A stretch of 32,178 nucleotides of DNA from an uncultured virus (IMG/VR IMGVR_UViG_3300037961_002446) (IMGVR_UViG_3300037961_002446:62001-94178); one strand, 5' to 3'. Shown: positions 5,888-32,177, counted from the stretch's first letter. Program-made: numbers and translations. The notes: a model not told the origin generated them from the letters alone.

Positions 5888-5897
5888 CTTTCATTCC

Positions 5898-6566: not shown

Positions 6567-6567
6567 T

Positions 6568-6786: not shown

Positions 6787-6798
6787 TTAACCAACCCC

Positions 6799-7182: not shown

Positions 7183-7192
7183 ATTAAAAACC

Positions 7193-7474
7193 TCAAATAT
7201 ATTCAACGGTAATGTCTAGGTCAGCAGGAACAACTGCTGTAAGTCCTAATTTACATAGGACTCCATGCATATCAAATTCCATACTACTATTAGCGGGAAC
7301 TGTTAGTCTAGCAACTATTTTTCCTGATGCCGAAGTATTATCATAAATAGAAGCCGTTATTGCCGCATTGGTATCATTTGCCCCGTGAACAGAAATTAGT
7401 TTTATCTGTCCTGAAACAACTACCTCAGTTGCGCCTGTTATTAGACCACTACTTCTACAACCAACCATAGACAT
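7193..7474 (-). CDS. Small beta-rich virion protein (possible capsid decoration)
   Basis: 93 aa, rich in small and beta-branched residues, two genes downstream of the MCP, GGAGG RBS. Confidence 0.45.
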   Translation of the reverse strand: MSMVGCRSSGLITGATEVVVSGQIKLISVHGANDTNAAITASIYDNTSASGKIVARLTVPANSSMEFDMHGVLCKLGLTAVVPADLDITVEYI

Positions 7475-7871: not shown

Positions 7872-9293
7872 TCACTTTAGGTTAGTAATCTTACCTTGAC
7901 CCTTGAAGTAAGAACAACCAACTTCCGCAATTGTTCTGTAAAGAGCCTTGTTTCCTAGAGTGCCGACACCGAATGGGTTTCCGTTGCTAATACCATCTTC
8001 AAAGTATTGAGTTGGTTTCATAACAGATAGCCACAAATGGTCTGTATCAAGGAATAGCATATCACTTAGTTTAGTGGCAGTTCCTTGTCCTGTTTGGCTC
8101 ATAGCCGATACAGGAATCAAAGGAATGTCGTAGTAAGTTGAAACTCTAAATCCGACTTCTTGACCTTTTGTTCCTCTAACACCATTAACGGTAGGGACAA
8201 TTTCCTTTCTATCCATGAATCTCTCTTGAGCCTGTAGTAGGTCAGCGAGTGCTTGAATAGTATCATATCCTGTTAGAATAACCTTTGGTGAACCACCAGA
8301 TTCACGGAGTAGTCTTAGCATTTTGTTAATCTTTGCTAGAGTTAAATCCGCTTGGCTTCCGGCAGTATAATCTGCTCCAAAGTCTACTTGAGAATCTAGA
8401 TAACCTGTGGTTGCTCCTCTTTCCTTACCGTAAAGAGTTTTCATAGTATCTCCTACTGCGTCATCAACTGTTTGACCCGCAGTTCCACCTGTATACAGTT
8501 CATCAGTAGCCATAGCAGTTATTTCAGCATTTGAAGAAACAACCTTCAATAGAGAAGTATATCCTCTATCTAGATTTGCTAGAGATGTGCTTCCACCATC
8601 AACACCAATATAAAATTCTAAAGGCATAACTAGCATCTTGTTCTGAACTTCTGCATGGTGCTTACCCATATCTTCACGCATTTGCGCTCTAATATCGCCA
8701 ATTCCATCATCAATTGCCGCCATTTCCATAGCCAATTCGCTGAAATCAAATTGATGTGCAATAATTTTTGGGCTTGTAAATAGTGTGTCATATTCAGGTG
8801 CAAGAGAAACTAGACCATCAGCAACAGTATCAAGTTTAGCGTTTTCAGGAACACCACCAATACCATCTGCTCTAGGAGTTGTTCCTCCAATTTGACCTGC
8901 TCCTGTTCCTGCCGCTAAAGCAACACCATCACCGTCTGTATTGTCAGCATTTCCTGAAACTGCTAGGAAATTACCGCTTCCACCTGTAGGGCGAGAAGTC
9001 ATAATTCTCCAACCGCTAGAAGTATATGGCCTCTTTGAAATAATTGAAAGAGCATTACACTCTCTATTTAGCATAGACCAAACTTTTTGGCCGTAAATCT
9101 TGTTGTAAAGAGCATTTACATTTGCGGCAGTAGTGCCTGTTCCCAAATCTGCTCCTGCTGATTGACCTGCATGACCCGCATGAAGTCCTGCAATTGCGCC
9201 ATTAGACTTCAACAATTGATTGTTAAAACCTGTTGCACCTGTCAATCCGTAAGTTCTTGCTTCTAAATCTGCTATTGTGTTTACATAACTCAT
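7872..9293 (-). CDS. Major capsid protein (HK97 fold, halovirus/magrovirus type)
   Basis: 473 aa directly downstream of the prohead protease. Motifs YGQKVWSMLN..NALSIISKRPY..SGWR, PKIIAHQFDFSE and terminal FKGQGKITNLK. GGTGA RBS. Confidence 0.88.
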   Translation of the reverse strand: MSYVNTIADLEARTYGLTGATGFNNQLLKSNGAIAGLHAGHAGQSAGADLGTGTTAANVNALYNKIYGQKVWSMLNRECNALSIISKRPYTSSGWRIMTSRPTGGSGNFLAVSGNADNTDGDGVALAAGTGAGQIGGTTPRADGIGGVPENAKLDTVADGLVSLAPEYDTLFTSPKIIAHQFDFSELAMEMAAIDDGIGDIRAQMREDMGKHHAEVQNKMLVMPLEFYIGVDGGSTSLANLDRGYTSLLKVVSSNAEITAMATDELYTGGTAGQTVDDAVGDTMKTLYGKERGATTGYLDSQVDFGADYTAGSQADLTLAKINKMLRLLRESGGSPKVILTGYDTIQALADLLQAQERFMDRKEIVPTVNGVRGTKGQEVGFRVSTYYDIPLIPVSAMSQTGQGTATKLSDMLFLDTDHLWLSVMKPTQYFEDGISNGNPFGVGTLGNKALYRTIAEVGCSYFKGQGKITNLK

Positions 9294-9303: not shown

Positions 9304-10494
9304 TCAATTAAATCCTCCGGCCATCTTATGAATATCTGACCAATCCATTTCGGCCAATTCGTCCATAGACGGTAGAGAAATTTGTGCGTCTTCTTGAGCC
9401 TTTAGGATTGTTTCCTTTTCAGCAGTCAAAGACTTGCGTAGTGCAGTAAATTCTTCCTTTAGAGAAGCAATTTCGCTTTGTGCATCATATTGAGCCTTTG
9501 CGAGAACATTCTCTTTATGAGAAACTTCTTGTGCAAATCGGGCTTCAAATTGCTTTTGTAGGTTGTCGTATGCCAACTTTTCTAGTTGTTCTTGGCGGAA
9601 AGCCTCGTAAGCCTTCTCAATGTTTCCAACGGACAAGTCAAGAGTTTCCAATTCGTTGTTGTCAAATGCTTTAACAACAGGCAAATCAGATGCCTTTGGG
9701 TTTCCATTTTCAATGATTACTCTATCAGCAGGTTCTCCAATTTCAACACCTGCTCCGTCTAGAGTAGAAACAACTGCTTTGTTTTCCTCATCGGAGTAGC
9801 CACCCTTTTCTTCTTCGTCTTCTTTTTCGTGCATATCGCCCATTTTTTCTTCATCGGGCATATCCATATATTCGCCTTTTTCTTCTTCTTCTTTGCGAAG
9901 AGTATTGACTTCCGCCATTAGCGCATCTAACTCTTCTAGTGCTTTCTCAATTTTACTCATATTGCTCACTTCTTTTTTGTCTTGCTTTAAAATGTCAAAC
10001 TTTGCTTCGGGATTGATTCCTTTTTCACAGATTGTAACCTCATGTAATTCTAGTTTGCTTATTTCATTGTATTGTCCTAGTTCAGGGTGGCTTTTCTTTA
10101 CTTTCTGTATTGCCTGTCCTCCAATGCTAAAACTCCTCAATGAACCTTTTCTTACGCCTCTTCCTATTTCTTTGGCTTTTTCTATATCATCTCTTAATTT
10201 AATTACTACAAAGAATCCCACATCATCTACTTCGGTTTTCCATATTTTTCCATTTTTATCTCTATATGATTCTACTACTTCCCCGACTTGAACATTTGAG
10301 TGGTTTGTCATTACATTTCTAAATTTAGGGTTCTCCATGTATTTTATTACTGCTTCTTGTAGTGCTTTAAGTGTGATTAAATCATTTTGCTTATCAACAA
10401 TCTCTATGCTTGCATATCCCCCAATCATCAGATTATCTTGGCTTTTCAGGATTCTGAAATCATTGGTTGTTGTTGCCATTACCGCAGAAACCAT
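9304..10494 (-). CDS. Prohead protease fused to an acidic coiled-coil scaffold
   Basis: HK97/XkdF-type protease motifs GYASIEIVDKQND, HSNVQVG, SFSIGG, LHEVTIC..GINP, followed by an E/K-rich helical C-terminal half. Probable start MVSAV at 10494 (ORF track: 10539). Confidence 0.88.
   Translation of the reverse strand: MVSAVMATTTNDFRILKSQDNLMIGGYASIEIVDKQNDLITLKALQEAVIKYMENPKFRNVMTNHSNVQVGEVVESYRDKNGKIWKTEVDDVGFFVVIKLRDDIEKAKEIGRGVRKGSLRSFSIGGQAIQKVKKSHPELGQYNEISKLELHEVTICEKGINPEAKFDILKQDKKEVSNMSKIEKALEELDALMAEVNTLRKEEEEKGEYMDMPDEEKMGDMHEKEDEEEKGGYSDEENKAVVSTLDGAGVEIGEPADRVIIENGNPKASDLPVVKAFDNNELETLDLSVGNIEKAYEAFRQEQLEKLAYDNLQKQFEARFAQEVSHKENVLAKAQYDAQSEIASLKEEFTALRKSLTAEKETILKAQEDAQISLPSMDELAEMDWSDIHKMAGGFN
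9321..9348. repeat. 28 nt repeat copy 1 (encodes MDWSDIHKM)
   Basis: 26/28 identical to 13606-13633. Confidence 0.8.
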
Positions 10495-13582: not shown

Positions 13583-13822
13583 TTAGTTTCCTCCTGCTCT
13601 TTCTACCATCTTATGAATTTCAGACCAATCCATATTAGATACATCAGTAATTCCACCACTAGAATTATCCATTGATGGAGTTGGGCTTTCAGCCACTACC
13701 AAACCTGCTTTCATTAGTAGGCTATCTTTAGCATACATCATCTTCTCTAATGCTTCAACCTTATCGGACAAAGCCTTTACAATCTCAAGCATTTCTTCAT
13801 TAATCGTTTTTTCTTCTGTCAT
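13583..13822 (-). CDS. Mini scaffold-like protein (coiled coil plus MDWSEIHKM motif)
   Basis: Start MTEEK at 13822 (AGTGA RBS). C-terminus matches the C-terminus of the protease-scaffold. Confidence 0.6.
   Translation of the reverse strand: MTEEKTINEEMLEIVKALSDKVEALEKMMYAKDSLLMKAGLVVAESPTPSMDNSSGGITDVSNMDWSEIHKMVERAGGN
13606..13633. repeat. 28 nt repeat copy 2 (encodes MDWSEIHKM)
   Basis: 26/28 identical to 9321-9348. Confidence 0.8.
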
Positions 13823-13827
13823 AAATA

Positions 13828-14181
13828 TCACTTCTTTTTCTTTGGATATACTAAATCATATAATTGACGGTAAAGTAATTCATACTCCTTACGAAGTTTC
13901 GTAGCCGTAGCGACAATATCAATGTTGCGCTCGTCCATAGACTTCATCTTTTTGTTTAGTTTCTTATCTGATTTAGTCAAGTCTAAATCTTTCATCATAG
14001 AGATAAGTTCTCCTAGTTTAGTAAAGTCTTGACCAAAAAATTCTGTGGGTTCAGATGCTTGAAGTGTTTTCTTTAGCCGCTTTTTTTGCTTTGCATCTAA
14101 AGAATCTAGTATTTCTTTAGGGGCTTTGTCTTCTTTCTTGAAAGAAATTTCTCTTCCATCTTCATAAAAATCCCATGTCAT
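13828..14181 (-). CDS. Hypothetical K-rich helical protein
   Basis: 117 aa, ATGA overlap with the upstream gene. Confidence 0.7.
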   Translation of the reverse strand: MTWDFYEDGREISFKKEDKAPKEILDSLDAKQKKRLKKTLQASEPTEFFGQDFTKLGELISMMKDLDLTKSDKKLNKKMKSMDERNIDIVATATKLRKEYELLYRQLYDLVYPKKKK

Positions 14182-16155: not shown

Positions 16156-17793
16156 TTAACCGACTCTCCTTTCTGTTCTTTTGTCATTATTTTGATTTCC
16201 TGCTTCTAGTGGTAATCCTGTTAATCTTTTATCCGGCCCTTGATTCATAGATGGTTTATTTCTTGTTGTTGCTGGATTTGCTTGTGGTTTGCTCATCATT
16301 TGTTCTTGCATTTGACCCATTTGAGATGCGTCTATATTAGTTCCTGCGTATGGGTCTAATTCAACTTTTTCCCCTTCTTGAGAAGATTCGCCTTCTTTTG
16401 GTTCTTGTGGTTCAGGTTTCTTAAAAGTAAATTGGCCATCTTCGTCCATATCAACTTCAAATCCTAAATTTTTAGTAGAAGCCGCAATATTAACTTCAAT
16501 CTCTCTCTTTCTTAATACCGCTATTTCATCTTCTTCTTCGCTTGGTGGGAGTTTTAAGTTCCAATCAGTAATTCCAAATTGCTTAATTAGGAATGGGAAT
16601 ACATAATTATTGTAAACATTTTGTGCCATTTGAACGGCTCTATTGGTGACAAGAATTTGCATACCTTCATTGTTTAATCCACCGCTTGTAGTATTATCAG
16701 CCATGAAGACTTTACTTACACCATAAAACGCTGAAATCCTATCTCTTAAATCATCTTTAACAGAAACATAATCCATTTCTTTTAGACTATCCATGAACTT
16801 AATCCATTCAACTGCACCCTTACCGTTCTCGGCTTCAATACCCATAACAGGAATAAAGTGCGGGTCTTGTTCCATCTTTTCTTTAACTGCTCTCCAAAAA
16901 GATTTCATGGATTCCATGTTGCGAGTTTGAACAGCCAACAATCCCTTTGGCATACGACTCTTTGTGTATGAAGAATTGACATAATTCTCCATAGCAATTA
17001 GTGTCATTATGTTATTGTAAAGAGTAATAATTGGAGAAAGACCATACAATCTAGAAGGATTATATTTACTAAAATGTAAGACTTCTCCCTTGAGGAAGTA
17101 TTGGTCTTGGCCATTTACTCTATTTACATAATGAACAGGAAATAGATTTGCCCCGCATTCTTCGCAGTTATCATGAGGTTCTGTTGATAACATACCTCTA
17201 TGATTGACACAAGTAAATCCCTTTGTTCCTCTTTGTCCTAACTCATCGGTGTAAATAGCCATTGTCACGGGGTCGCCTCTATAGACTTCCTTGATTCTAT
17301 GCATTCTAATTTTACCATTACCATCAATAAAATATTCTTTGACTAGAACAATATAGGCATCGTCCATGATATTCAAATCATCTTCAAGTTCTCTAAGAAC
17401 ATCAATGAATAGTTGTTCAGCCTTATTGACATAACCCTCTATAAATTTTTCAGCATATTCTAGTTGCTTTACATCAGGAGTTCTTAAGTCAGTAGAACCA
17501 CATCTAGAACATTCCGAAACAGGCCTTTGGTGTTCCTTTCCACAATTATTACATCTTGCTTCGTATGCCTTTTCCCAAACATATCCTCTACGGAAAATTT
17601 CCTGTTTAAGTTGAGTAATACAAGTCCTAGCAATAACAGACTGATTAACTAAATGATAGATAATCGGAGCAGTCATTAGGTTTGCTTGTTGCCTTTCCTG
17701 AATGCCTATGTTGAAGATTTTTCTATCGGCAGGTTTGGGAGTAGAACGCCTAAACAGGTTTCTTACGCTAAATCGTCTTCTTTCCTCAACCAT
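16156..17793 (-). CDS. Portal protein with Zn-ribbon insertions
   Basis: Portal motifs EVLHF, YGLSPI, MPKGLL, DDLRDRISAFYGV. CNNC/CSRC and CVNH/CEEC pairs. Lies downstream of the terminase. Confidence 0.88.
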   Translation of the reverse strand: MVEERRRFSVRNLFRRSTPKPADRKIFNIGIQERQQANLMTAPIIYHLVNQSVIARTCITQLKQEIFRRGYVWEKAYEARCNNCGKEHQRPVSECSRCGSTDLRTPDVKQLEYAEKFIEGYVNKAEQLFIDVLRELEDDLNIMDDAYIVLVKEYFIDGNGKIRMHRIKEVYRGDPVTMAIYTDELGQRGTKGFTCVNHRGMLSTEPHDNCEECGANLFPVHYVNRVNGQDQYFLKGEVLHFSKYNPSRLYGLSPIITLYNNIMTLIAMENYVNSSYTKSRMPKGLLAVQTRNMESMKSFWRAVKEKMEQDPHFIPVMGIEAENGKGAVEWIKFMDSLKEMDYVSVKDDLRDRISAFYGVSKVFMADNTTSGGLNNEGMQILVTNRAVQMAQNVYNNYVFPFLIKQFGITDWNLKLPPSEEEDEIAVLRKREIEVNIAASTKNLGFEVDMDEDGQFTFKKPEPQEPKEGESSQEGEKVELDPYAGTNIDASQMGQMQEQMMSKPQANPATTRNKPSMNQGPDKRLTGLPLEAGNQNNDKRTERRVG

Positions 17794-20561: not shown

Positions 20562-21983
20562 TTAGAAATTTAAACCGATAGCGTTTCTTGTTTGCGGTTT
20601 ATCATCACCAAACAACCCTAAATCATCTAGCAATATGAAATTGTCGTTGGATTGGTAAGTAGCCGCATTCGCCAAAGCCAAACTCATTACCATGTCATCG
20701 TGTGCGCCTACTCCTTCAAATTTACCCCGTTCAGTAATAGCAAACATAGACATTTCTTCTATTAAGGCAGAAGTCGTCCTTCTACTTTCCTCATTACCGT
20801 ATGGGAAATTCATCTTATTATTTTCTAGAGTCATCTGTAGATTCAAAATAATTTCTTGCTTTTTTCTTCTAGTGGTGTTGAAGTCATGAACATTCAAGTC
20901 AGCCACTTGTCTTAATTCTTGAGTAAATGATTTAGCGAAAGTATTTGTTTCAAACAAGATAACTTCAGGCCTAAACATTTGACCAATGAGTTTTACCTTC
21001 TGTATGTTTTCTCTAAACTCTACATTCTTTGCTCGGTCAATATAGACAATAGATTTGTTTTCATTCTCGTCCATCTCTAATACAGTAATTACATTGTAGT
21101 CGCCATCTGTAGATATAGCAGGGTCTACGCCTACAAAGTATTTGTAGCCTTCACGCTTCAACGGCTTCAAAACTAAATCTTTATTCTTAGCACCTTCTAA
21201 ATGCTCAGGGTTAAACAAAGAAGTTCCTGTAGAAATAGGCACACACATATATTCTCTAGTAAATTTAAGAGAACCTATTTCAGCCTTTCTCGCCATCAAT
21301 GAATCATAATCCCAACGACTTGGCCATAACGGTTCATTAAGAGCATTTAGGCAAGGATAGGTTCTAAGAGTATATGCTGCATTTTCAGACAACTGAGCAT
21401 AAATATCTGTATAACTAAATGGTGTCCCAATAACTCTTAGTGAAGCAGAATGATGTAGTGTAGGAATCATATCACCGTAAAACCAATCAGTGACTTTCTG
21501 AATTCCTGACATACTAAATTCTTTCAAAGGGTCGTCAATAATAATCTCTTGAGGGTGAAGTCCACGAATCTGTGAACCAACAGAACGCTCTAAGATTTGA
21601 TTGCCATTTGTTAGAGTAATGTTTCCAATAGCCCAACCTCTTGCAGGTTTGTATTTCTTTAGCATTGGGTGATTGAACATTTTGTCTATGTCCCTCATGT
21701 GAACCATAGTCTGTTTTTGGTTAGAAGAAATGTATAGCATTTGATATGGAGGAGGTTGAAAAATCAAATTCCAAACAACCCAACTATGCATGAATACAGA
21801 TTTACCATGACCTCTTGAACAAATAATTACACTTCTTTGTGTAGTGTTCATTAGTTCTAGCCATTCTTCTTGGTGTTTAGCAAACTCCCAACCTAGCACT
21901 TGCTGAAAAAAATACGGAAAGGAATTTTTGGATAATTCCATATCCATTTGATGTTCAAAATTAAGTTGCTCTAAATCAGACAT
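20562..21983 (-). CDS. terL: Terminase large subunit
   Basis: Walker A SRGHGKS, Walker B IIIDD, motif III IGTP, RNase H-like nuclease GVDPA and HDDMVMS. Confidence 0.93.
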   Translation of the reverse strand: MSDLEQLNFEHQMDMELSKNSFPYFFQQVLGWEFAKHQEEWLELMNTTQRSVIICSRGHGKSVFMHSWVVWNLIFQPPPYQMLYISSNQKQTMVHMRDIDKMFNHPMLKKYKPARGWAIGNITLTNGNQILERSVGSQIRGLHPQEIIIDDPLKEFSMSGIQKVTDWFYGDMIPTLHHSASLRVIGTPFSYTDIYAQLSENAAYTLRTYPCLNALNEPLWPSRWDYDSLMARKAEIGSLKFTREYMCVPISTGTSLFNPEHLEGAKNKDLVLKPLKREGYKYFVGVDPAISTDGDYNVITVLEMDENENKSIVYIDRAKNVEFRENIQKVKLIGQMFRPEVILFETNTFAKSFTQELRQVADLNVHDFNTTRRKKQEIILNLQMTLENNKMNFPYGNEESRRTTSALIEEMSMFAITERGKFEGVGAHDDMVMSLALANAATYQSNDNFILLDDLGLFGDDKPQTRNAIGLNF

Positions 21984-22531
21984 TACCTTCCACCCATATT
22001 AAACGGGTTAAACGGTTCATCTCTTCTCGGCCTAGCAGTAGGTCGTTGTTGTGAAGAATGATTAGGTTTAACCCCATTGAAATAAATATCTATCTTTTCG
22101 GCATTAGAAGGATAGTTTCTTCCACTAGATTTATCATCAGGACTAACATGAGTTAGTAGAATTACTTTGCTATATGGCTCATTTTGTTTTGTTCTCAATT
22201 CACTTACTTTAAGTTGCACTCTAGGTAGTTTTCCTTCTGTCATTACCTTTATCATTAGGAAACTTCTATCTCTAGTGCTTGAATTTAGATAACACCAATA
22301 GTCGCCAACTGAAAGTTGTTTTAACCTAGCCTCAATATCAGGACTGATAGTATTATGGCTAAGTTTTCCCTTGTATCTTTCATTCATGCTATACAGATAA
22401 TGAGGCATAAAAATAATCGCTACATCGTCATCTTCTTTTGTATTAGCGTAACCTTCGCCTCTTTTGTCTTTAGGTCTAGGGTCTTCGCCATAATCTTGAC
22501 TAGGCTTTAATTTAAGAATATCCCACCACAT
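21983..22531 (-). CDS. Hypothetical protein with MWWDILK leader
   Basis: 182 aa, abuts the terL start. Confidence 0.7.
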   Translation of the reverse strand: MWWDILKLKPSQDYGEDPRPKDKRGEGYANTKEDDDVAIIFMPHYLYSMNERYKGKLSHNTISPDIEARLKQLSVGDYWCYLNSSTRDRSFLMIKVMTEGKLPRVQLKVSELRTKQNEPYSKVILLTHVSPDDKSSGRNYPSNAEKIDIYFNGVKPNHSSQQRPTARPRRDEPFNPFNMGGR

Positions 22532-22532
22532 C

Positions 22533-23348
22533 TTAATTGCCGTCCTCTATGTCATATCTAGCATTACTGCTTCTAAGCATTTCTTCTAGAATACCTCTAT
22601 ATGCTTCCCCTCTTCTTCTTGGCCTAGAGAAACCTATCTTAAGATAATACAAAACCATTCTTTTGTTAATGTCTGCTAGATTAGTATATCTAACATATTT
22701 TTTTCTATCTACAGGAATCTCATCATCAAGGATTTTTTCTTTTAGCGTTAGCCATTGTTCATCTGTAATTTGCCTACCTTGATTTGGTTTTGCTTTCACT
22801 ACAGACCACCACTCAGGCATTACATCATCAGCATATACGCACTTAGCAAATTCATCTTTACCTCTAATACTGCGTATAGCCCAATTGCCGTTAGGGTATG
22901 CGCTATTCCATTCGCTTATAACTGATTCGGGGAGTAAAGAACTAAACTGCTCAAACCCTTCATCTTGAGAAAATTTCCAACCGTTTCTTCTAGCATTAGC
23001 AATCCATCTAGCATTATCTCCATCTCTATGACCAAAAGCAGCAACTAGTGGTTTTGATTGGTTTAGTTGTGGTTCTCTTGCATCTTGTAATGCTCTATTA
23101 TTTCCACCAATTTCTCTTCCTTCGGCAGTAGCATACATTCCACCTACAACGGTATGTGCAGGGTGTTCTTTCCAACCAACAGTTGAAATGGCTCTATCAT
23201 CATCATTGACTCTAATAATCCACTTATCTAATTCATAGATACCGGATTCTAAATCAGCCCTGCGAGTATATGGGTCTTCAGGATTATCCTCAGAAAACCT
23301 CTTTTTCATATCTTCATATGAAAATACCGCAGGGAGAACTTTTACCAT
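22533..23348 (-). CDS. Hypothetical protein, possible GNAT-like N-terminal domain
   Basis: 271 aa. VVGGMYATAEGREIG resembles GNAT motif A. Internal MPEWWSVVKA. Confidence 0.5.
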   Translation of the reverse strand: MVKVLPAVFSYEDMKKRFSEDNPEDPYTRRADLESGIYELDKWIIRVNDDDRAISTVGWKEHPAHTVVGGMYATAEGREIGGNNRALQDAREPQLNQSKPLVAAFGHRDGDNARWIANARRNGWKFSQDEGFEQFSSLLPESVISEWNSAYPNGNWAIRSIRGKDEFAKCVYADDVMPEWWSVVKAKPNQGRQITDEQWLTLKEKILDDEIPVDRKKYVRYTNLADINKRMVLYYLKIGFSRPRRRGEAYRGILEEMLRSSNARYDIEDGN

Positions 23349-23599
23349 TACTTTTCACCTAGAAAGTATTTTAAATTTCTATCATAGAAAGCATCAAACT
23401 CATCAGGAGTTTTAACAGAATCAAGTTGTTCAAGTTTAACTGTCGCTAAATCTTCTGACTTTCCTCTTTCAGTAGTCTTTGCTCTACCTACCATGCTCTC
23501 TAATTTACTTCTAATTTCGGGTATTTTTTGTTTCATTTCTGCTGGCCTACTAAAATCTAATAGACTAGTTTGTGCTTTTAGTATATCTTTCCAATTCAT
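23348..23599 (-). CDS. Hypothetical protein with MNWKDILK leader
   Basis: 83 aa, GGTGA RBS. Confidence 0.7.
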   Translation of the reverse strand: MNWKDILKAQTSLLDFSRPAEMKQKIPEIRSKLESMVGRAKTTERGKSEDLATVKLEQLDSVKTPDEFDAFYDRNLKYFLGEK

Positions 23600-23603
23600 T
23601 TTA

Positions 23604-23891
23604 TCACCATAGTTTCTTACACGCTAAACATTTTGGGGTTGTAATTCTACCTTTACATTGGTCGCAATTATGTCTTGATTTGAAGTTAGCCCTGCGCTTT
23701 TTGTTGGTATGAGTTCCACCGCCTCTATTCTTTCCCTTGCCTTTGTAATTACCATAGCCTTTAGCACCTGCATGAATCTTTTTCCCTTCATGAGTAAGCA
23801 TCATAATTTTCTTACCTGCTCTATCGGAAGGATATACACGACCTACTCGCATATCTTTCTTATCTTTCTTTAGCACTTCTTCCCAAGACAT
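23604..23891 (-). CDS. Basic Cys/His protein with MSWEEVLK leader
   Basis: Probable start at 23891 (GGAGGGG RBS; ORF track: 23936). GKKIHAGAKGY...RRANFKSRHNC...C..KLW resembles small basic viral DUF proteins. Confidence 0.7.
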   Translation of the reverse strand: MSWEEVLKKDKKDMRVGRVYPSDRAGKKIMMLTHEGKKIHAGAKGYGNYKGKGKNRGGGTHTNKKRRANFKSRHNCDQCKGRITTPKCLACKKLW

Positions 23892-23895
23892 AATA

Positions 23896-24465
23896 TCAGC
23901 CCCTCCATCTAGTTCCTGATGGTGTATGTGTTCCACCTGTGTTATAGGTTATATTAGAACTAGTCATTCTTGGTTTTGTTCTGAACTGCCTCATTTCTTG
24001 TTGTTGCTTATTGTATTCTTCTTTTGCTTTTTGTTGAGCGTATTTTATTCCTTGTTGTATAGTAACCCTACCGACAAAAACATCACCTTCATTCTTAAGA
24101 TATTCAGTTAGAAATCTACCTGCTGATTTTAGAGCCGATTTATTTTGATTGTAAGTATTCAAATCATTTTGGTCTGAAAATTTAATTCCATCAACAGTGA
24201 ACTGCGGTGGTTTGGGTTTATTGCTAAACAAGCCTCTTATCTTCAAAACCTCTTCCCATTTCTTAACAGGTTCATGAGTATAATAATCTCCATGCTTATG
24301 CTCAAACAGTTTACCATCTTCTTTCATATCAGAAATAGTTTCCTTGAGTTTCTTTTTATCAGCAATATCTTTTAGATTCTTCATACCCAATGCTCCGCCT
24401 TCGGCTTCAACCTCATCAAGTATTTCTTCTTCAACATCTTCTTTTAGAATGCTTTTCCAACTCAT
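23896..24465 (-). CDS. Hypothetical protein with MSWKSILK leader and internal KWEEVLK
   Basis: 189 aa, apparently two modules. Confidence 0.7.
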   Translation of the reverse strand: MSWKSILKEDVEEEILDEVEAEGGALGMKNLKDIADKKKLKETISDMKEDGKLFEHKHGDYYTHEPVKKWEEVLKIRGLFSNKPKPPQFTVDGIKFSDQNDLNTYNQNKSALKSAGRFLTEYLKNEGDVFVGRVTIQQGIKYAQQKAKEEYNKQQQEMRQFRTKPRMTSSNITYNTGGTHTPSGTRWRG

Positions 24466-24839
24466 GCTCCTTTCCTCCTTTTGTAAGTTTTACAGGCCGC
24501 ACAGGTTGGCCTACATCTTTGCTTAGTCCCTTTAGAAGCATCTTGTCTTCCACATGGTTTTGTTCCTTTTTTATCATCTTCACAAGATTGACAAGAAACC
24601 CAACCTTTCTGTCCTCCACCGCCTCTTCTTGAAAACCAACCGTGAAGACCCTCTTTCTTTTCTCTAGCAAAATTATCTCCACCCTTCTTTACAGAATTAC
24701 CCCAATTATCTGCACCAACTTTACGGCATCTAACTAAAGCACCACTAGCATAAGCGGAAGGCCACTTTTTGTAGCGGCTACGGACTTTGTGATAACAAGC
24801 GTCCTTTTTCTTCTTTAGTTCTTCAAACCACAAGTCCAT
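24462..24839 (-). CDS. Basic Cys-rich protein with MDLWFEELK leader
   Basis: KKDACYHKVRSRYKKWPSAYASGALVRCRK and GLHGWF...GWV...KPCGR...CRP modules, recalled from marine phage hypothetical proteins. GGTGA RBS. Confidence 0.7.
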   Translation of the reverse strand: MDLWFEELKKKKDACYHKVRSRYKKWPSAYASGALVRCRKVGADNWGNSVKKGGDNFAREKKEGLHGWFSRRGGGGQKGWVSCQSCEDDKKGTKPCGRQDASKGTKQRCRPTCAACKTYKRRKGA

Positions 24840-24843
24840 AGTA

Positions 24844-27321
24844 TCACCTAAAGTTAGCCTTAATCAAATAAACTTGCTCAGTATTAATCCCGTATTCCTT
24901 TGAAATGTTGTTATGTGAATCATCAGACTTGACGATATTTTCTATTTCTAGATGGCTCAAATCTATTCCTTCTTCTATGTGCATTTTAGTAATAACACTA
25001 TCAATAGAATCATATGTAAGATTCATGAAACCATATTCCACTTTCTTACCTAGTTGTTTTCTAATAGCATCGTGAGCCTTAAGCAACTTGTTTAGAACAA
25101 TCGGCAAATCATCTTCTACCTTAGTAAACAGTTTCTTCAATCTCTTATATTGTGCTTTCATAGCAGGTTCTTTGGTTAGTAGGCTTTGGTGTCTATCAAT
25201 GTAGTGTGGTAGTGCAAAGATAGGGAACGCTTCTCTATTACTGTATGACCGTTCAAAAGATTCTGCTCTTTCTTCAACAGACTTACCATTAATAGGCTCA
25301 TCAGCATAGGTATTATCTCCTATCTCTTCCATAAAGTGCATCAGCAAAGCACCCATATAGTCGCTATTTCTTTCTTCGGTATCTTCTCCAAAGATTTCAG
25401 TTAAAGCATCAGCCGCATTATCAGCCGCTTGGATTAATTCATCAGTAATTTCAAAGTTAGGCTTATCTAGGAATTCTAAGAAATCAGCAATTCTTCTAAT
25501 GTCTGAAACTTCAATAGCACTTGCACCAATTCCTGAAAGTAATTCGTATGCTCCTCCCATTACAGTTTCTAATCCTGTATCTCTTGCTAGAATTTCCAAA
25601 ACCTTTGCTCCTCTTCCTGAAATAAAACTTGGAGTTTCTATTGGTAGTCTACCTGCATACATTGGAGTAATGTAATAAGCAGTAGCGGATTCTAGAAATT
25701 TAGCAATTATTCCCTTAAACTCTTCAAGACTTTCATCAAGTTCTCCTCTAGTAAGTGGGTTAATTGGTCTTGACCTTGCTCCTCCGAGTCTTCCCATTCT
25801 TTCTCTATAAGAACCGCCACTTGTTCTAGGGGCTTCTCTAGACATTCCTGCATCAGCACCGAATACGCTTCCTAAAGTTCCTCCTCTACCTGTTGCTCTA
25901 ACTCCTGAAGCAAAACCAAATTTCTTGCTTGTTAATCCCGCATGAATTTCATCTAACATTTCAGACAACATAGATTCAATATCCATAGTAATCCCATCAC
26001 GCTCAACTGCTGATGGTAGTTTTTCAGGATATTTAGCGAAGGTTCTAAACTTGGTATCTTTCATTACTGTAATAGGCAAAAAGAATTCTCCTTTTTCACT
26101 AACAAAAGAATCTTCTATGTCATCTATCATTTGTTCAATATCTGTTTGGAAATCAATAGTGGTATCATCTTGTCCTAATACTTCTAGAAGTTCAGTAATT
26201 ATTCTATGTCCTTCGTCATTAAACGCCAAAAGTTTCTTTCCTCTCATTACCTCAAATGCTAGGAGAGGGTCAATAAAGAGAGTTTCTTCTTCAACGGTTT
26301 TGTCTGCATATACATCATCTATAGAATCATCAGCCAACTGTTCTTCCAAAAACCCATCATCTCTATGAGTAGTTTCCAAACCATTCCATTGACTCATGTA
26401 TTGTTCTTCCCAAGCATCTTGCCCCGAAGAATCTACATCGTCTTCGTCTTCCCCTTGAATTTCTATTTTCTTCTTAGATAGACCCTTCATGATTAGTAGG
26501 TTTTCTAGAATAGCCACCATTCTTTCAGCAGGTTTGATTTGATTTAGGCCAACTGTAGGAAATCTAGCAATATATTCTAGGTTCTCATCTCCATACTTTT
26601 CATTTAGTTTGTTAAAGTAATTCTTGAATTGTTCATTCTCGCTTTTGTTAGCGGCAACAAATAGAGCATCTAGGTCTTCTTTGAATTGAGTATATTTTTC
26701 AGAAATCTCTTCCCAATAGTCGTAAATGTCATCTCTTTGTCCTAGTTTAGAAAGAGGGGTTGCTCCCAAATATTTTCTGATATTGAACCTAACTGACTTC
26801 ATTTTAGCCTTAGATTCTCCTTGACTAATCTTTCTTTTGAGAACCTGTTGGATTCTTTCTATGTTGTGTTGTAGATTGTCAAGTTGTTGTTGAGTAAATT
26901 TCTCCTTGAATTCAGGCATCTGCAAAAAAGTATCAACTGTTTGTTGGAATGCAGGTTCAAGGATTTTAGTTTGGCTAATATCTCCAATAGTAAAATTTTC
27001 TAGTTTTTCTTCAAATAGAGTTTCTTTAGTTAGATTAACTCCTTCTTCATCTTTAATCTTAAGACGCATAATTGGGCCATAAGCAAATTCTCTAACATCT
27101 GTAGCGGCTAAACTTTTGATTTCTCTTCTTAGTTGAGTTCTAAATTTCTTAGCCTCTTTGTCTAGTTCTGACCCTTCTAGACCTTCTTGGGCTTTTTTGT
27201 TTCTAAAGTCCTCAACTAAATCTTTCATTCCTTGAATTCTCTCAGGGCTTCTATCTTCTGTATTCTGAACAAGGGCTTGTATTTCCCTCATCAAATCTTT
27301 ATTTTCTTGAATATCGGCCAT
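24844..27321 (-). CDS. Large acidic hypothetical protein with C-terminal HTH-like motif
   Basis: About 825 aa, start MADIQ at 27321 (AGTGA RBS). RG-rich loop in the middle. Ends SHNNISKEYGINTEQVYLIK. Confidence 0.75.
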   Translation of the reverse strand: MADIQENKDLMREIQALVQNTEDRSPERIQGMKDLVEDFRNKKAQEGLEGSELDKEAKKFRTQLRREIKSLAATDVREFAYGPIMRLKIKDEEGVNLTKETLFEEKLENFTIGDISQTKILEPAFQQTVDTFLQMPEFKEKFTQQQLDNLQHNIERIQQVLKRKISQGESKAKMKSVRFNIRKYLGATPLSKLGQRDDIYDYWEEISEKYTQFKEDLDALFVAANKSENEQFKNYFNKLNEKYGDENLEYIARFPTVGLNQIKPAERMVAILENLLIMKGLSKKKIEIQGEDEDDVDSSGQDAWEEQYMSQWNGLETTHRDDGFLEEQLADDSIDDVYADKTVEEETLFIDPLLAFEVMRGKKLLAFNDEGHRIITELLEVLGQDDTTIDFQTDIEQMIDDIEDSFVSEKGEFFLPITVMKDTKFRTFAKYPEKLPSAVERDGITMDIESMLSEMLDEIHAGLTSKKFGFASGVRATGRGGTLGSVFGADAGMSREAPRTSGGSYRERMGRLGGARSRPINPLTRGELDESLEEFKGIIAKFLESATAYYITPMYAGRLPIETPSFISGRGAKVLEILARDTGLETVMGGAYELLSGIGASAIEVSDIRRIADFLEFLDKPNFEITDELIQAADNAADALTEIFGEDTEERNSDYMGALLMHFMEEIGDNTYADEPINGKSVEERAESFERSYSNREAFPIFALPHYIDRHQSLLTKEPAMKAQYKRLKKLFTKVEDDLPIVLNKLLKAHDAIRKQLGKKVEYGFMNLTYDSIDSVITKMHIEEGIDLSHLEIENIVKSDDSHNNISKEYGINTEQVYLIKANFR

Positions 27322-27326
27322 AATTA

Positions 27327-29285
27327 TCACTCAATCAGTTGTTGTTTTTTGAATTCTTTAATTGCTAAAGGAACATTACTTTGTTTATACGGGAAAAAGT
27401 CTTGGTAGTCTTTTGTGAAGTCTTCTAGTCTTAGTTTAAATCCGCTAATTAGTTCTTCTTTTGCTTCTTTTAGGAATTGTGGCATTTTATCATTTAATTC
27501 ATTAGCGAGTTCCAACTGCTTACTAGTGTTATCCCTGTTCTTATCTATAGATATGAATGTATCGGCAATTAAACCGTCTTGTCCTTCGTCCATAATACCC
27601 TGTTCGCCTAGCCTAGATAATATAATCAAACTGTTCTTTGGTGATAATTTATCCATTACTGTTGCACTAGAAGCGTCTGATTCTGTAAGTTTAGTTAGGC
27701 CTCCTTCTTCATTATTGGAATAATCAACAATAAACTGAGCAAAATCGCTAGTATCTAACATGGTTTGTCTTAATTTACCCAAACCTATCTTAGTCCCTTT
27801 TTCTTTTTCCTTGTTTTCAATATCTTCCATTAATTCTTTAGGAGAAGTTTCATCATCATCTAAAAATATCTTAGCATAAGCAATATCTGTTCTTTCTCCT
27901 TGAGAAATAGGCTTGTCAAACTCATCGTAGTATTCTATTTCTAAATCACCAAAAATAAACTCGGCATCATCTGTATCGTCATAAATTTCTTGGAAAGCCT
28001 GTGCTTCTTTCACAGTAAATTTACCTTGATACTTGTCTTGGAATACATTTCTTTGATATGCAGAAGTTTGGCGATTAAATTCTTGTCTTAGAGTAGTATC
28101 TTTATCTAAAAAATTCTTAATTTTCTTTCTATCTTGTTTTTGATTATTTGTGAGTTTAATATCTCTAAAAGGAATAAGATTTGTTCCTAAACTGCTCTTG
28201 TCAGGATTATTTGGACTGCCTAGACCTTCAATAATAGAATCAATGAACATTCTTTCAGCAAGACTCTCGCTAACAAACGCATTCATTCTAACTGCGGAGA
28301 AGAAATCATTAAACCATGAATCTCCTGTAAAACTAGCAGTAATTAACAACTTACCATAGGGATTTAGTGCCAAAGAGTTCTTTCTACCCGATGCTCTTTC
28401 CAAAAATATAGCATCAGATGGGAACTCAAAGCCATTTTCCATAACTTTAGGCTCAAATTTAGAAATATCTCCACCAATGGCCTCAAGTGCTAGAATATAT
28501 CTCAACACATTGTTAGAAGTGAAGGGTTCTCTTACTGTAAAGGACACATTTGAGGCTAACATGGTGTCAGTTTCAGAAACAGAAGAGAGTGTTCGCTCTT
28601 GTCCCTCCAAATCGGGCTTGTATTGTCTAATTTTCTCAGAATAGAGAGATTTTGCCTCATCATTTTGCCTAATCGCATCTCTAACCGCCTTCGCACTATC
28701 CAAATTGGTCTGAATTGTGTCATTTTTGACTTCTCCTCCGATTGCATTCGCAAATTCCGAGATTGAAACCGTAAAATTTTCTTTTTCTTCGGCATTTGAC
28801 GGTATGGATTTAAACTCAATGACGAAACCATCAGCAAAAGAGTCAAAAACTCGCATTTTAGCCCTTAATTTTTTATTTCTTTGAAGACTTCTTTGTGATT
28901 TTCCTTTAGCGTCTTTGATTTTTTGAGAAAGTTCAGCAAATTTGGCTTCATTACCCTCATTTTTCGCTGAAATTGCTTCATCAAGTAGCGTTTCAAGTGC
29001 TTTTGTTTCGCTAACTTGTTCATCTTTTACTGAGTCAAGAACTTTTTTCAGATTTGCCTCTATTTTTTCCTTAGAAATATTAGGTAGAGGTAATTTTTTC
29101 ATCATAGATTCAACTGTTATGTTGTTTCCTTTTATGTTTCTAAGAAGACCTTTGAATCCTGCGCTCAATGTTTCTGAATTTTTGATTTCTTCTATCAATG
29201 AATCTGTTTTAGAATCATCAGCAAGGGCAATTAGCAAAGTAATATCTCTTTGCGGTTGCGCTTTTAGAAGAATTTGCCAACTCAT
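27327..29285 (-). CDS. Large hypothetical protein with MSWQILLK leader
   Basis: 652 aa, ATGA-coupled to the upstream gene. Confidence 0.75.
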   Translation of the reverse strand: MSWQILLKAQPQRDITLLIALADDSKTDSLIEEIKNSETLSAGFKGLLRNIKGNNITVESMMKKLPLPNISKEKIEANLKKVLDSVKDEQVSETKALETLLDEAISAKNEGNEAKFAELSQKIKDAKGKSQRSLQRNKKLRAKMRVFDSFADGFVIEFKSIPSNAEEKENFTVSISEFANAIGGEVKNDTIQTNLDSAKAVRDAIRQNDEAKSLYSEKIRQYKPDLEGQERTLSSVSETDTMLASNVSFTVREPFTSNNVLRYILALEAIGGDISKFEPKVMENGFEFPSDAIFLERASGRKNSLALNPYGKLLITASFTGDSWFNDFFSAVRMNAFVSESLAERMFIDSIIEGLGSPNNPDKSSLGTNLIPFRDIKLTNNQKQDRKKIKNFLDKDTTLRQEFNRQTSAYQRNVFQDKYQGKFTVKEAQAFQEIYDDTDDAEFIFGDLEIEYYDEFDKPISQGERTDIAYAKIFLDDDETSPKELMEDIENKEKEKGTKIGLGKLRQTMLDTSDFAQFIVDYSNNEEGGLTKLTESDASSATVMDKLSPKNSLIILSRLGEQGIMDEGQDGLIADTFISIDKNRDNTSKQLELANELNDKMPQFLKEAKEELISGFKLRLEDFTKDYQDFFPYKQSNVPLAIKEFKKQQLIE

Positions 29286-29944
29286 TGTAATTTCTCCTGC
29301 ATCTTCTGTTTAATATCTAACCAAATTTCAGGATTGTTCTGTGCTAAAACTTCCTGAACAATTTGCATCTGTGCAACAATAACAGTATCTTGTCGCTTGT
29401 GAACCAATTTACCCTTAAACTCCATGAGATATTTTAGGGACTCTCTAATTTCTCTAGCAAGTTTGGTTAGAGCGTCAATCATCTTAGGGTCTAAATCATT
29501 TCCTAAGTCATTGAATACTTGCTCCAATCTCAAATCTAACTTCTGAACATTGTTAGACAAAACATCTACTTCATTCAATTCTTTTGTGGCTATCATCATA
29601 GCCGCACTTTCTTGCACTATTGGAGTAAGATGGTTTTTTACATGGCGTTGAATTTGTGCCTTTGTTGTGTCTAAAGCGGAAGCCAAATCAGAACTTGTAA
29701 TTTCTCCATTCTGTAGTGCCAACTCGTAGTGCTTTCTCATTGGGTCTACACATAATTTACATTGGGGATTTGAATTTGATTTGTATTCTCCCATGTGGTT
29801 TCTTTGGTGTTGTGCCGCAGTTCCACTTCTCCAATTATATTCAGCGTCTAATTCATCACAGGTAATTTCACCTGCTTCCAACATTCTTTCAAGTTCTTCT
29901 CTATTTTCATGTTGGCAAAAACCACAACGCTTTCTAGTAACCAT
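29282..29944 (-). CDS. Tandem CxxC-HTH-HxxxH protein with coiled coil, possible terminase small subunit
   Basis: Two repeats, CGFC...HQRNH and CKLC...HVKNH, each enclosing an HTH-like helix pair, then an oligomerisation-type helix. Probable start MVTRK at 29944 (ORF track: 29974). Confidence 0.5.
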   Translation of the reverse strand: MVTRKRCGFCQHENREELERMLEAGEITCDELDAEYNWRSGTAAQHQRNHMGEYKSNSNPQCKLCVDPMRKHYELALQNGEITSSDLASALDTTKAQIQRHVKNHLTPIVQESAAMMIATKELNEVDVLSNNVQKLDLRLEQVFNDLGNDLDPKMIDALTKLAREIRESLKYLMEFKGKLVHKRQDTVIVAQMQIVQEVLAQNNPEIWLDIKQKMQEKLQ

Positions 29945-29946
29945 GA

Positions 29947-31083
29947 TTATCTTCTCCATAATCTTGCTTGCCACATTTTAGAAATTACTTTTTGGTCAGG
30001 TTTCATTCTGAATCCTTTTCCTTTTGGTTCATCATAGGTTTTAGGGAACGCTTCCTTTGCAGTTTTTCTATAATCAAAGCCACGCTTTCTAGCGTTTTGC
30101 CACGCTCTATATCCGTTTGGTGCTTTGTTAGTCCCTGCTCTCTTTAATGCTCTATCAACCAATTCAATAATTGGAGTTGCAGTAGAAGTCAATTTGAAAT
30201 CAATAATTTTACCCGCAGGAGTTTTCTTATCTCCTTCGGCATTAAATCTAGCAAGACTCGCTACAAGTTCTTGGTCTTTGTTTTTTAATTTGAAAGACCT
30301 TGCTTGTAAGTCTTGTCTTACTTTCTTTACTAAGAGTTTACCACCATTACTCCAAAAAGCAGGATTCTTGATAACACTATCAAAATAATCTCCAATAGCA
30401 CTAATCTCATCAAAATCTCTAGGTGGCGCACCGCCTCTTACTTCTTCTATTTCTAAATCACTAATCTCTAAATCATCTCTAACCATTTCTTTAGCCTCTT
30501 GCATAATAGCAAGTAGTCCTTTTGGTTTAGCCCATCTATTAGAAGATTCAGCGAATAGTGCTTCATGTGGTGGATTCTTTCCTGCAAACCATTCAGCAGG
30601 TGCGGCTTTCTTTCCTGTTTTCTTTTCATAAGCAGGACTTCTGTAGTGGCCTCTTAATTCCACCTTTCTTCTTTTCTTACCGCCTCTTGTTTCAACAAAT
30701 TCTGTAAATAGAATATCTTTAGGGTCTAAGGAAGTGTCTTTTAATTCAGCCAAAACTTCTGCCATAGCATTGATAATCATGGCTTCTCCTTGAGTAAATA
30801 CGCTACCGTCTACAATACCTTCAATGACTTGAAGTGCTTCTCTTGCACCTTGACCTTCTTTATCCGAATTAGCCGAACCGGGTCTAATGTTTCCAAATAC
30901 ATGAGTAAACAAAAAGTCATACAATGTAGGGACATTCTCTACATACAAATCATCACCGCTAATACTTTGGCAGTTTTCTTTCCAAGTTCGGAAGTCCTTT
31001 ACAAACTTGAAAGACTCAATGTTTTGATTGAAGGTATTGCCTCCCATCTTAACCTGTTTCTTTTTCTTAGTTTCCTTTACCAT
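29947..31083 (-). CDS. Hypothetical protein
   Basis: 378 aa, basic termini, GGAGG RBS. Confidence 0.75.
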   Translation of the reverse strand: MVKETKKKKQVKMGGNTFNQNIESFKFVKDFRTWKENCQSISGDDLYVENVPTLYDFLFTHVFGNIRPGSANSDKEGQGAREALQVIEGIVDGSVFTQGEAMIINAMAEVLAELKDTSLDPKDILFTEFVETRGGKKRRKVELRGHYRSPAYEKKTGKKAAPAEWFAGKNPPHEALFAESSNRWAKPKGLLAIMQEAKEMVRDDLEISDLEIEEVRGGAPPRDFDEISAIGDYFDSVIKNPAFWSNGGKLLVKKVRQDLQARSFKLKNKDQELVASLARFNAEGDKKTPAGKIIDFKLTSTATPIIELVDRALKRAGTNKAPNGYRAWQNARKRGFDYRKTAKEAFPKTYDEPKGKGFRMKPDQKVISKMWQARLWRR

Positions 31084-31204
31084 CTTCTTCTTCCTCCTTT
31101 TTCTTCTTTGAATATCTTATGTTGAATAAAGAAGGTGAAGATGTTGTGGTAACAGAACCCGCCATCTTTTCTTCTTCTTTACGGACAATATCTCGCCAAC
31201 TCAT
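31067..31204 (-). CDS. Unannotated 45 aa protein with MSWRDIVRK leader
   Basis: Manual translation MSWRDIVRKEEEKMAGSVTTTSSPSLFNIRYSKKKKEEEEDGKGN*. ATGA overlap with the upstream gene; fills the gap. Confidence 0.7.
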   Translation of the reverse strand: MSWRDIVRKEEEKMAGSVTTTSSPSLFNIRYSKKKKEEEEDGKGN

Positions 31205-31602
31205 TTTTGACCCCTCATTTGATTTTCTTTAGATGTTTTATCATCATCAATCGGGCCACCTTTAGCCCAAGTATAACAAGTTCTTGCTGAATGACATTTG
31301 AAATCGTGCATCCAACAATAACCTAAACGACCATCTTCATCGGTAGTTAATGGCATACAATCGTCCATTCTAGGTGAAATATCAAAAGCAATACAATTAC
31401 TACAGTTAGATTCTTTTGCTACATCAGCAGTAGTGTTCCATCTCTTAGCATACTTTTCCCAATATTCTTCATCTTCTAGATTAAGTGGCCCATATCTGAT
31501 ATTAGGGTTTTTAACTGCGGCATCTCTATTTTTAGTATTGAGCATCAAATCTTGTGTTGCTCTAGGACAAGTAAGTTCCTTAAGAATAATTTGCCAACTC
31601 AT
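31201..31602 (-). CDS. Cys-rich, HiPIP-like protein with MSWQIILK leader
   Basis: CSNCIAF...GYCWMHDFKCHSARTCYTW. Confidence 0.65.
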   Translation of the reverse strand: MSWQIILKELTCPRATQDLMLNTKNRDAAVKNPNIRYGPLNLEDEEYWEKYAKRWNTTADVAKESNCSNCIAFDISPRMDDCMPLTTDEDGRLGYCWMHDFKCHSARTCYTWAKGGPIDDDKTSKENQMRGQK

Positions 31603-31706
31603 TTCTTTTCACCCGTGACAAAACATTTCTTTGACTTTGCCTCGCTATCATCAACTTCTTTTGATTTTGCGTCAAACCAACTATCTAAGTAATTACACCT
31701 TGTCAT
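31599..31706 (-). CDS. Unannotated 35 aa protein
   Basis: MTRCNYLDSWFDAKSKEVDDSEAKSKKCFVTGEKK*. GGTGA RBS upstream; its stop overlaps the next ATG (ATGA). Confidence 0.6.
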   Translation of the reverse strand: MTRCNYLDSWFDAKSKEVDDSEAKSKKCFVTGEKK

Positions 31707-31707
31707 A

Positions 31708-32016
31708 TTATTCACCTAAGCCATGTTGGTCTACGGCTTGAAGTAACTCTAATATCTTAATATCCATTTTAGTTAATCCTGATTTGCCTCTTAGTTTATA
31801 CAATTCACCTTGTAAGTATTCGTGCATATCCGATGCGCTTACTCCTCCCAAACTGTTTCTAACTATGTTCTTTTTCATTCTCTTTTCATCATCAAATTGA
31901 GGAATAAGCGGTTGTTCTATAGAAGGTAGTCCTTGTTTTACTCTTTCTCTCGCTCTCTTAACATGGTCAGGAAGTTCCTCTTCCTCTTCATTCTTTAGAA
32001 TTTTTTCCCAAGACAT
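31708..32016 (-). CDS. Hypothetical protein with MSWEKILK leader
   Basis: 102 aa. Confidence 0.7.
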   Translation of the reverse strand: MSWEKILKNEEEEELPDHVKRARERVKQGLPSIEQPLIPQFDDEKRMKKNIVRNSLGGVSASDMHEYLQGELYKLRGKSGLTKMDIKILELLQAVDQHGLGE

Positions 32017-32018
32017 AA

Positions 32019-32177
32019 TTAATCCCTATCCGTAAAAGCACTTCTGTTTTTCTTTTTCTTGTCTTTAGCGGCCTGTTTCATGGATTCCTTTTTGTTTCCA
32101 TCACCGTCTAAATCTATGTAGTCGGGTTTAGCCCCTTCTGTTTTTTCAAATTGTTCTTTTTGACAAGAAGGACAATC
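32019..32177 (-). CDS. C-terminal end of a protein with a DxDxDG (EF-hand-like) motif, starts outside the window
   Basis: ...DCPSCQKEQFEKTEGAKPDYIDLDGDGNKKESMKQAAKDKKKK...D*. Confidence 0.65.
   Translation of the reverse strand, partial: DCPSCQKEQFEKTEGAKPDYIDLDGDGNKKESMKQAAKDKKKKNRSAFTDRD

Follow-up and report, generated by a model that had tools for sequence, protein, structure and literature searches.

A shared W-x-x-I-L-K leader on unrelated late proteins of a magrovirus-like virus as a candidate head-targeting tag

Relation to known capsid-targeting signals

Encapsulin cargo-loading peptides and the C-terminal scaffold helices of HK97-fold shells are short, portable peptides that stand at either end of the cargo and are not clipped. 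In bacteriophage T4, the internal proteins IPI-III and Alt carry a capsid-targeting sequence (CTS), which is removed by gp21 at (L/I)-x-E and has affinity for core proteins, not for the shell (excerpts of PMC9026906). A short N-terminal signal of P1 DarB is sufficient for direction to the capsid (excerpts of PMC9024508), and many head ejection proteins of phiKZ and SPN3US share a minimal protease motif and are processed at either terminus (excerpts of PMC5694885 and PMC10052503). Here we describe a short peptide, W-x-x-I-L-K, at the N-termini of otherwise unrelated late proteins of an uncultured virus (IMG/VR IMGVR_UViG_3300037961_002446), in a window of 32,178 nucleotides (genome positions 62001-94178), by which we mean the whole stretch of DNA analysed. 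The genome resembles those of magroviruses, and we consider it likely that this peptide, hereafter the tag, serves magroviruses as the CTS serves T4, as a compact targeting signal for the head that can be removed. The sequence-only reading of the window knew of no description of such a system for archaeal viruses; literature searches agree, having found no capsid-targeting signal there, while T4 and P1 provide demonstrated examples. The shared N-terminal motif is not mentioned in PMC10768690, nor in the excerpts available of the magrovirus papers PMC5434244, PMC11706807, PMC10160649 and PMC5332604.

The likeness to T4 is one of architecture. In both systems an N-terminal peptide of about 8-10 residues presents aromatic and hydrophobic targeting positions followed by a protease site, and the cargo is unrelated and non-conserved; T4 Alt is cut at both ends, and some magrovirus cargo modules occur in virion proteins of T4-like cyanophages. 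Magroviruses thus possess a short terminal peptide shared by unrelated late proteins, but its sequence is unrelated to the M-K-T-Y/F-x-E-F-I-x-E type of T4, and it ends in Lys and not in (I/L)-x-E. Instead of a Glu-specific gp21-type protease with a gp22 core there is a Peptidase_S78 protease fused to the scaffold, predicted to cut after Lys, in an archaeal virus. Each magrovirus genome carries 12-25 tagged genes, as compared with about four in T4; the motif is also found at C-termini and at module joints, and its role in loading is a predicted one. Judging from sequence, the tag most likely functions like the T4 CTS but falls outside that group by sequence and by protease type. With encapsulin peptides and scaffold helices it shares portability and an HK97-fold shell; those peptides differ in not being clipped, and binding of the tag to the shell is only hypothetical. 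The Dar proteins of P1 are without a consensus signal (excerpts of PMC9024508), whereas magroviruses have one motif on hundreds of proteins. The phiKZ and SPN3US proteins differ in their long propeptides, their Glu specificity and the lack of a common short leader (excerpts of PMC5694885 and PMC10052503).

Occurrence, conservation and location of the tag

All nine shared N-termini listed by the sequence-only reading were recovered where it had placed them, on the minus strand. They are MSWEKILK (31993..32016; gene 31708-32016, 102 amino acids (aa)), MSWQIILK (31579..31602; a 133-aa Cys-rich gene, 31201-31602), the variant MSWRDIVRK (31178..31204; 45 aa, 31067-31204), MSWQILLK (29262..29285; 652 aa, 27327-29285), the variant MDLWFEELK (24813..24839; 125 aa, 24462-24839), MSWKSILK (24442..24465; a two-module gene of 189 aa, 23896-24465), MSWEEVLK (23868..23891; a basic protein of 95 aa, 23604-23891), MNWKDILK (23576..23599; 83 aa, 23348-23599) and MWWDILK (22511..22531; 182 aa, 21983-22531, directly upstream of the terminase large subunit gene, terL). 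For the gene at 23891 the tag was as described, and the length was corrected to 95 aa, counted from the tagged Met, in place of a 110-aa open reading frame (ORF) starting at GTG. The nine bodies show no mutual BLAST similarity at E<=0.01, as expected of proteins said to be otherwise unrelated. Two internal tags lie on the same strand, WEEVLK at the joint of the two modules in the 189-aa protein (24241..24258) and WWSVVK in a 271-aa gene (22794..22811; gene 22533-23348), whose shorter relatives stop at the tag.

The strict pattern M-x(0-2)-W-x-x-[IV]-L-K matches 6 of the 38 window genes and a looser pattern matches 9, while 20,000 shuffles gave a mean of 0.03 matches and a maximum of 2. A DNA version of the pattern found 5 matches, against 0.07 expected. 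Across the terminal overlap of the genome the cluster continues with three further tagged genes (MWKDILK, MTWEKIVK and MTWKNIVRK; genome 983-1864) and with a long gene that has an internal NWKEVLK. The genome total is therefore twelve tagged genes plus three internal tags.

Enrichment over background, which had been suggested as a check, was evident in 80 related terL loci (1523 unique genes), where the motif was matched 524 times at N-termini and 35 times at C-termini, against 1.05 expected for each, and 82 times internally against 27. When Trp within residues 2-6 was the sole filter (677 proteins), Ile was found at +3 in 63%, Leu at +4 in 64% and Lys at +5 in 83%. The Ile, Leu, Val and Lys codons of the tag follow background usage, which indicates that selection acts on the peptide. 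Only Ser2 is biased (AGT in 83%, background 24%); this fits the ATGA start-stop overlaps, which were seen by eye with the upstream stop in 4 of the 9 window genes. The tag is real, a strongly selected peptide. A scan of cellular-genome DNA returned single scattered matches, none with two among the 80 of 119 matches listed; the viral DNA scan, made with a slightly different pattern, gave 14 of 80 listed loci with two or more. The single matches in two viral contigs (G013 and G018) were put down to chance and rejected, since the stretch examined contained neither a tagged gene nor a relative of terL.

Location was counted in five complete genomes, using genes of at least 45 aa from a simple ORF caller, which missed two tagged genes of the present genome. 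Tagged genes made up 88 of the 217 upstream of the capsid gene and 4 of the 52 between the capsid and neck genes (92 of 269 for the whole head-side block), as against none of the 65 tail genes and none of the 331 genes on the opposite, replication strand. These 92 genes form 63 families, none of them common to all five genomes and 51 confined to a single genome; among untagged genes of the same strand, 140 of 242 belong to families common to all five. The core head proteins (terL, portal, ligase, protease and capsid) are untagged at the N-terminus. In a wider set of 180 loci with 2853 unique proteins, the tag is carried by 639, which fall into 243 families and have a median length of 116 aa, 54% being basic and 25% acidic. 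A membrane-like stretch occurs in 1 of the 639 tagged proteins and in 75 of 1865 untagged ones; a signal-peptide or membrane role was rejected on this count, the tag having no hydrophobic core. Eleven of 104 tagged representatives matched PHROGs, every one of unknown function, and 4 of 79 passed the Pfam cut-off (PAP2 twice, DUF6321 and pentapeptide repeats). The PAP2-family phosphatase is a recurring tagged cargo (L026:1580-2155, L328:2699-3742). The confinement to the head side, the fast turnover and the solubility of the proteins, together with the modules in phage virion proteins described below, are consistent with the earlier proposal of a variable head payload.

Predicted processing, shared cargo modules and rival explanations

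The major capsid protein (7872-9293) contains QLLK ending at Lys29 (9207..9218, minus strand), a predicted propeptide cut. An xLK near residue 29 is present in 62 of 62 close homologs, and in a deep alignment 92 of 109 rows hold Lys at this column, with Ala as the usual next residue; in the capsid model the stretch after Lys29 is poorly ordered. In the protease, on the same strand, FRILK stands just before the S78 domain (10444..10458; predicted self-cleavage site, 48 of 49 homologs) and FDILK just after it (9985..9999; predicted cut between protease and scaffold, 49 of 49). When the tag pattern was used with +5 left free, Lys occupied that position in 535 of 558 N-terminal tags and in 8 of 25 C-terminal ones (Arg in 9), and 15 of these 25 carried [ILVFM]-x-K immediately in front of the Trp (5.7% in the control). 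This asymmetry is what a removable tag predicts, with the cut between tag and cargo on either side. The conserved xLK of the capsid propeptide and of both edges of the protease domain, along with the asymmetry, fit clipping after Lys, as had been suggested.

The body of the 125-aa window protein has two modules that also occur in polyproteins of T4-like cyanophages (phrog_727; S-SCSM1 gp29, S-SM2 gp109), and one module is present in 365 phage records, nearly all from cyanophages. The module has 3528 homologs in the database; of the best 120, 70 have a W-tag (scored up to 45 residues upstream), 43 have a T4-type E site (an adjacent (I/L/V/A/T)-x-E, expected by chance in 3.5%) and none has both; (L/I)-x-E is the T4 gp21 cleavage rule (excerpts of PMC9026906). 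S-SCSM1 gp29 is a string of such modules with joints ending in Glu, is encoded near terL and is annotated as a virion protein. CsCl-purified S-SCSM1 virions yielded 45 proteins by mass spectrometry (excerpts of PMC9602691), and the virion labels used here rest on GenBank notes and on that text. When the 639 proteins were stripped of their tags and compared with the whole S-SCSM1 genome, 28 matched, all in gp29 or gp92, both virion-annotated; laxer profiles also matched gp89 (virion) weakly. In the window, a gene whose 3' end crosses the terminal overlap (32019..32177, minus strand; internal tag upstream) contributes a module that matches the beginning of gp92 at 59% identity. The W-tag is found in 0 of 311 S-SCSM1 ORFs, which include two CTS-like starts, and T4-like CTS starts in 0 of 3225 magrovirus proteins. 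A small virion-labelled S-SCSM1 protein, gp93 (L185:44626-44835), has a T4-CTS-like motif, TFKEFLE, in C-terminal position, which parallels the C-terminal tags.

Actinophage DSL-LC01 encodes a homolog, annotated as a 'high potential iron-sulfur protein', with 40% identity to the body of the 133-aa Cys-rich cargo, in the head module directly upstream of the protease and capsid genes. It lies shortly after a VTAA motif that recurs in the head proteins of that phage (15 in 2527 aa, against 1 in 688); the count is weak, the motif having been picked by eye.

We propose that head-side late genes encode a short amphipathic helix, with W, I and L at i, i+3 and i+4, which would bring the protein to the prohead during assembly, the interior core being the probable destination; the protease-scaffold, an 82-aa scaffold-like protein and the inner face of the capsid are candidate partners. 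The S78 prohead protease would then cut after the Lys of (I/L/V)-(L/I)-K and free the cargo, the same cut probably being made in the capsid propeptide and on either side of the protease's own domain. The tag could be used at a C-terminus, with the cut before it, or between fused modules. Only 7-9 residues would be needed, so that any gene landing in the head-side block could be recruited, and the payload would change fast, taking in small basic modules that T4-like cyanophages use behind their own Glu sites. We infer that the freed cargo is ejected into the host. Loading into the head is the most likely reading because some modules recur in T4-like cyanophage virion proteins behind T4-style sites.

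Several points weigh against this reading. Most of the 43 E-site homologs are without a known genome, and 5-6 of the best 120 module homologs have a bare start. Only 28 of the 639 tagged proteins have an S-SCSM1 counterpart, confined to two proteins; since about 45 of 282 S-SCSM1 proteins are virion proteins (a base rate of about 16%), two out of two is modest, and the laxer profiles gave weak S-SCSM1 matches (E 0.003-0.008) to terL and two hypothetical proteins. Some basic modules are wholly untagged, as stand-alone genes in HMO-2011 and S-EIV1. Two families, those of the 378-aa and 271-aa genes, both in the window, supply 29 of 33 C-terminal tags. The residue after the tag Lys is unconstrained (Lys 26%, Gly 11%, Ala 11%), and the capsid site prefers Ala. 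Cleavage after Lys by S78 proteases, as in HK97, is general background, for which literature searches found no confirming paper. HVTV-1, the closest cultured relative, is without the W-tag in 11 head-region proteins, and no magrovirus is in culture (PMC10768690).

It is conceivable, if rather doubtful, that the tag copies the C-terminal helix of the scaffold and that the two compete for one pocket on the major capsid protein, in an encapsulin-like manner; this could also be a docking step within the head-loading reading. The sequence-only reading had argued for such mimicry from MDWSDIHK at the end of the protease-scaffold (9304-10494). That tail is indeed there (9325..9348, minus strand), and the 82-aa protein (13583-13831), a conserved protein with a coiled-coil start and a candidate second scaffold, ends in MDWSEIHK (13610..13633, minus strand). 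Both proteins end in D-W-x-(D/E)-I-H-K, which has W-x-D-I in common with W-K-D-I-L-K, the consensus of the tag; the capsid protein is of the HK97 fold, and a docking helix could, as the tag does, sit at either end of a protein. However, the claimed M-x-W-x-x-I-x-K identity reduces to W-x-D-I-x-K: His takes the place of the Leu at +4 in 1 of 637 N-terminal W....K peptides, and on a profile built from the 243 tag families the two tails score 1.2 and -0.8 bits against 9.7-23.8 for four window tags, with 4.1 for the WLDIKK of the probable small terminase (terS). A score equal to that of the scaffold tail is reached at about 1 in 700 positions of the proteomes. Tail and tag also vary independently. 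G019 (terL 59% identical) has 17 tags and a scaffold ending in SWEELNDL, without Lys; in G017 (terL 37-39%) the standard pattern is found at 0 gene starts and is replaced by a longer helix, F-D-x-A-W-x-(I/L/V)-L-K, with ten copies spread over nine genes that lie upstream of terS; cargo modules are shared, and the scaffold tail stays W-x-E-V-H (SWDEVHNL). From the sequences compared, the LK end is constant between tag groups and the likeness to the scaffold is restricted to W-x-D-I; a common origin of tag and tail is possible. The affinity of the T4 CTS is, moreover, for core proteins (excerpts of PMC9026906), and a complex prediction in which the 119-row capsid alignment was paired with 60 aligned N-termini of tagged proteins scored 0.00, which is evidence neither way. 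In short, the shared W-x-D-I of the proposed mimicry stood, while the His/Leu mismatch, the low score and the lack of co-variation did not favour the rest.

A signal acting outside the virion, by which a viral or host protease activates or destroys late cytoplasmic proteins (degron-like) or the proteins are targeted to a host structure, seems unlikely to us. It would suit cargo that mostly belongs to no known family, modules that are untagged stand-alone genes in other phages, and a probable small terminase, usually a non-virion protein, that ends in a weak look-alike of the tag. It does not suit the absence of tags from replication-strand and tail genes, the shared modules in S-SCSM1 virion proteins, or the same Lys motif conserved in the capsid protein and the protease. 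Still less probable, and only barely to be entertained, is that the conserved unit is a DNA or RNA start-of-gene sequence (for translation coupling, or as a recombination junction for cassette swapping) with the peptide as its by-product. The Ser2 codon bias and the ATGA overlaps speak for it; as the sole cause it is largely refuted by the synonymous variation of the other tag codons. A start signal would be useless at C-termini and inside fusions, where the peptide is also enriched, and G017 keeps an analogous helix of different sequence.

Returning to head loading, we put forward a wider proposal on which our judgement is evenly balanced. A two-way (N- or C-terminal), Lys-cleaved tag, independent of that of T4, would load 12-25 fast-changing proteins per virion, and a marine pool of cargo modules would move between archaeal viruses and bacterial phages, re-tagged according to each protease code (W-x-x-I-L-K; F-D-x-A-W-x-L-L-K in the distant group; (I/L)-x-E in T4-like cyanophages). 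If this holds, the tag would mark proteins that a group of abundant, uncultured viruses injects as early effectors. If the tag is a head-targeting signal at all, hundreds of anonymous proteins (243 families in the sample) are marked by a one-line pattern as delivered with the virion, and as candidates for a part in host takeover or counter-defence, in viruses whose hosts are abundant ocean archaea not yet in culture. The pattern would also predict the specificity of the head protease and provide a 7-9 residue handle for loading HK97-fold shells. This reading can be tested without culture of the host.

Virus assignment and other genes of the window

The window makes up the final third of the genome, a single contig of 94,178 bases whose ends overlap (circular junction). 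One of its strands encodes terL (20562..21983, minus strand), the portal protein (16156..17793, minus strand), an ATP-dependent ligase, the S78 prohead protease fused to the scaffold, and the capsid protein. The capsid model obtained from the deep alignment (119 rows) reached a predicted local distance difference test (pLDDT) score of 80 and matches HK97-fold capsids (32 close sequences gave pLDDT 39); by sequence, the capsid profile had no match among solved structures. By protease and capsid, the closest cultured relatives are the haloviruses HVTV-1 and HCTV. Magroviruses (Magrovirales / Aoguangviridae) have genomes of 90-100 kb with two opposed gene clusters, a ligase and a LAGLIDADG-type nuclease within the structural module, and an HMG-CoA-lyase-like gene (PMC10768690; excerpts of PMC5434244). 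The present genome is alike in each respect: it has a strand switch with opposed replication and morphogenesis clusters, and its HK97 capsid, protease, portal and terL are nearest to haloviruses, with the ligase inside the structural module. By size, opposed clusters, ligase position and the HMG-CoA-lyase-like gene, the virus fits the magroviruses known from marine Poseidoniales; searches of the phage collection gave no match to a reference magrovirus record.

The ligase (10539-13061) has a long N-terminal extension and sits in the head module, as already given in excerpts of PMC5434244; that of G017 is 1813 aa long. The HMG-CoA-lyase-like gene (17806-18699) is a head-module insertion present in only some relatives, and in G017 it lies within the tagged cluster. 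Between terL and portal, a conserved gene (18696-20552) encodes a nuclease-like domain annotated LAGLIDADG/HNH, followed by an 'IIAK' joint and a fused NUDIX domain that most relatives do not have. The longer-tag cluster of G017, a distant magrovirus group (M-N-P-F-D-Q-A-W-x-L-L-K type), is at L325:3600-11600 (G017 41.6-49.6 kb).

Within the tagged cluster of the window, for which no RNA holder is listed, the 378-aa gene (29947-31083) ends in a degenerate C-terminal tag, KVISK followed by MWQARLWRR (29947..29991, minus strand); its relatives end in KVISK-SWQEVIRA or RIVLK-SWMDILRN. The next gene (29282..29974, minus strand) is untagged and encodes the probable terS, so assigned from its position and a helix-turn-helix motif, with the tail WLDIK as the weak look-alike mentioned above. 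The 652-aa protein, with a tag on 23 of 30 homologs, recurs as a large cargo and gave no usable match in the atlas; it is followed by a conserved untagged protein of 828 aa (24844..27330, minus strand). The 95-aa protein matches DUF5754 / phrog_7595 weakly. The first 180 residues of the 271-aa protein, which precede its internal tag, resemble GNAT acetyltransferases (atlas score 0.96, 10 of 10 best matches in the GNAT clan), a lead only, with no Pfam match to the protein; this family, tagged internally or at the C-terminus, may be a packaged enzyme.

In HVTV-1, a short module (..EAPEG..G.RGG..Y) was seen by eye to recur behind a Lys in several head-region proteins (gp113-116; L182:5820-14608); it may be a halovirus tag of another kind. 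After the capsid gene of the window (4548-7206) lie a small-GTPase-like protein (weak Roc match), two short membrane proteins and two Gln-rich proteins, and in relatives tagged genes are sometimes inserted beside the GTPase-like gene of this block.

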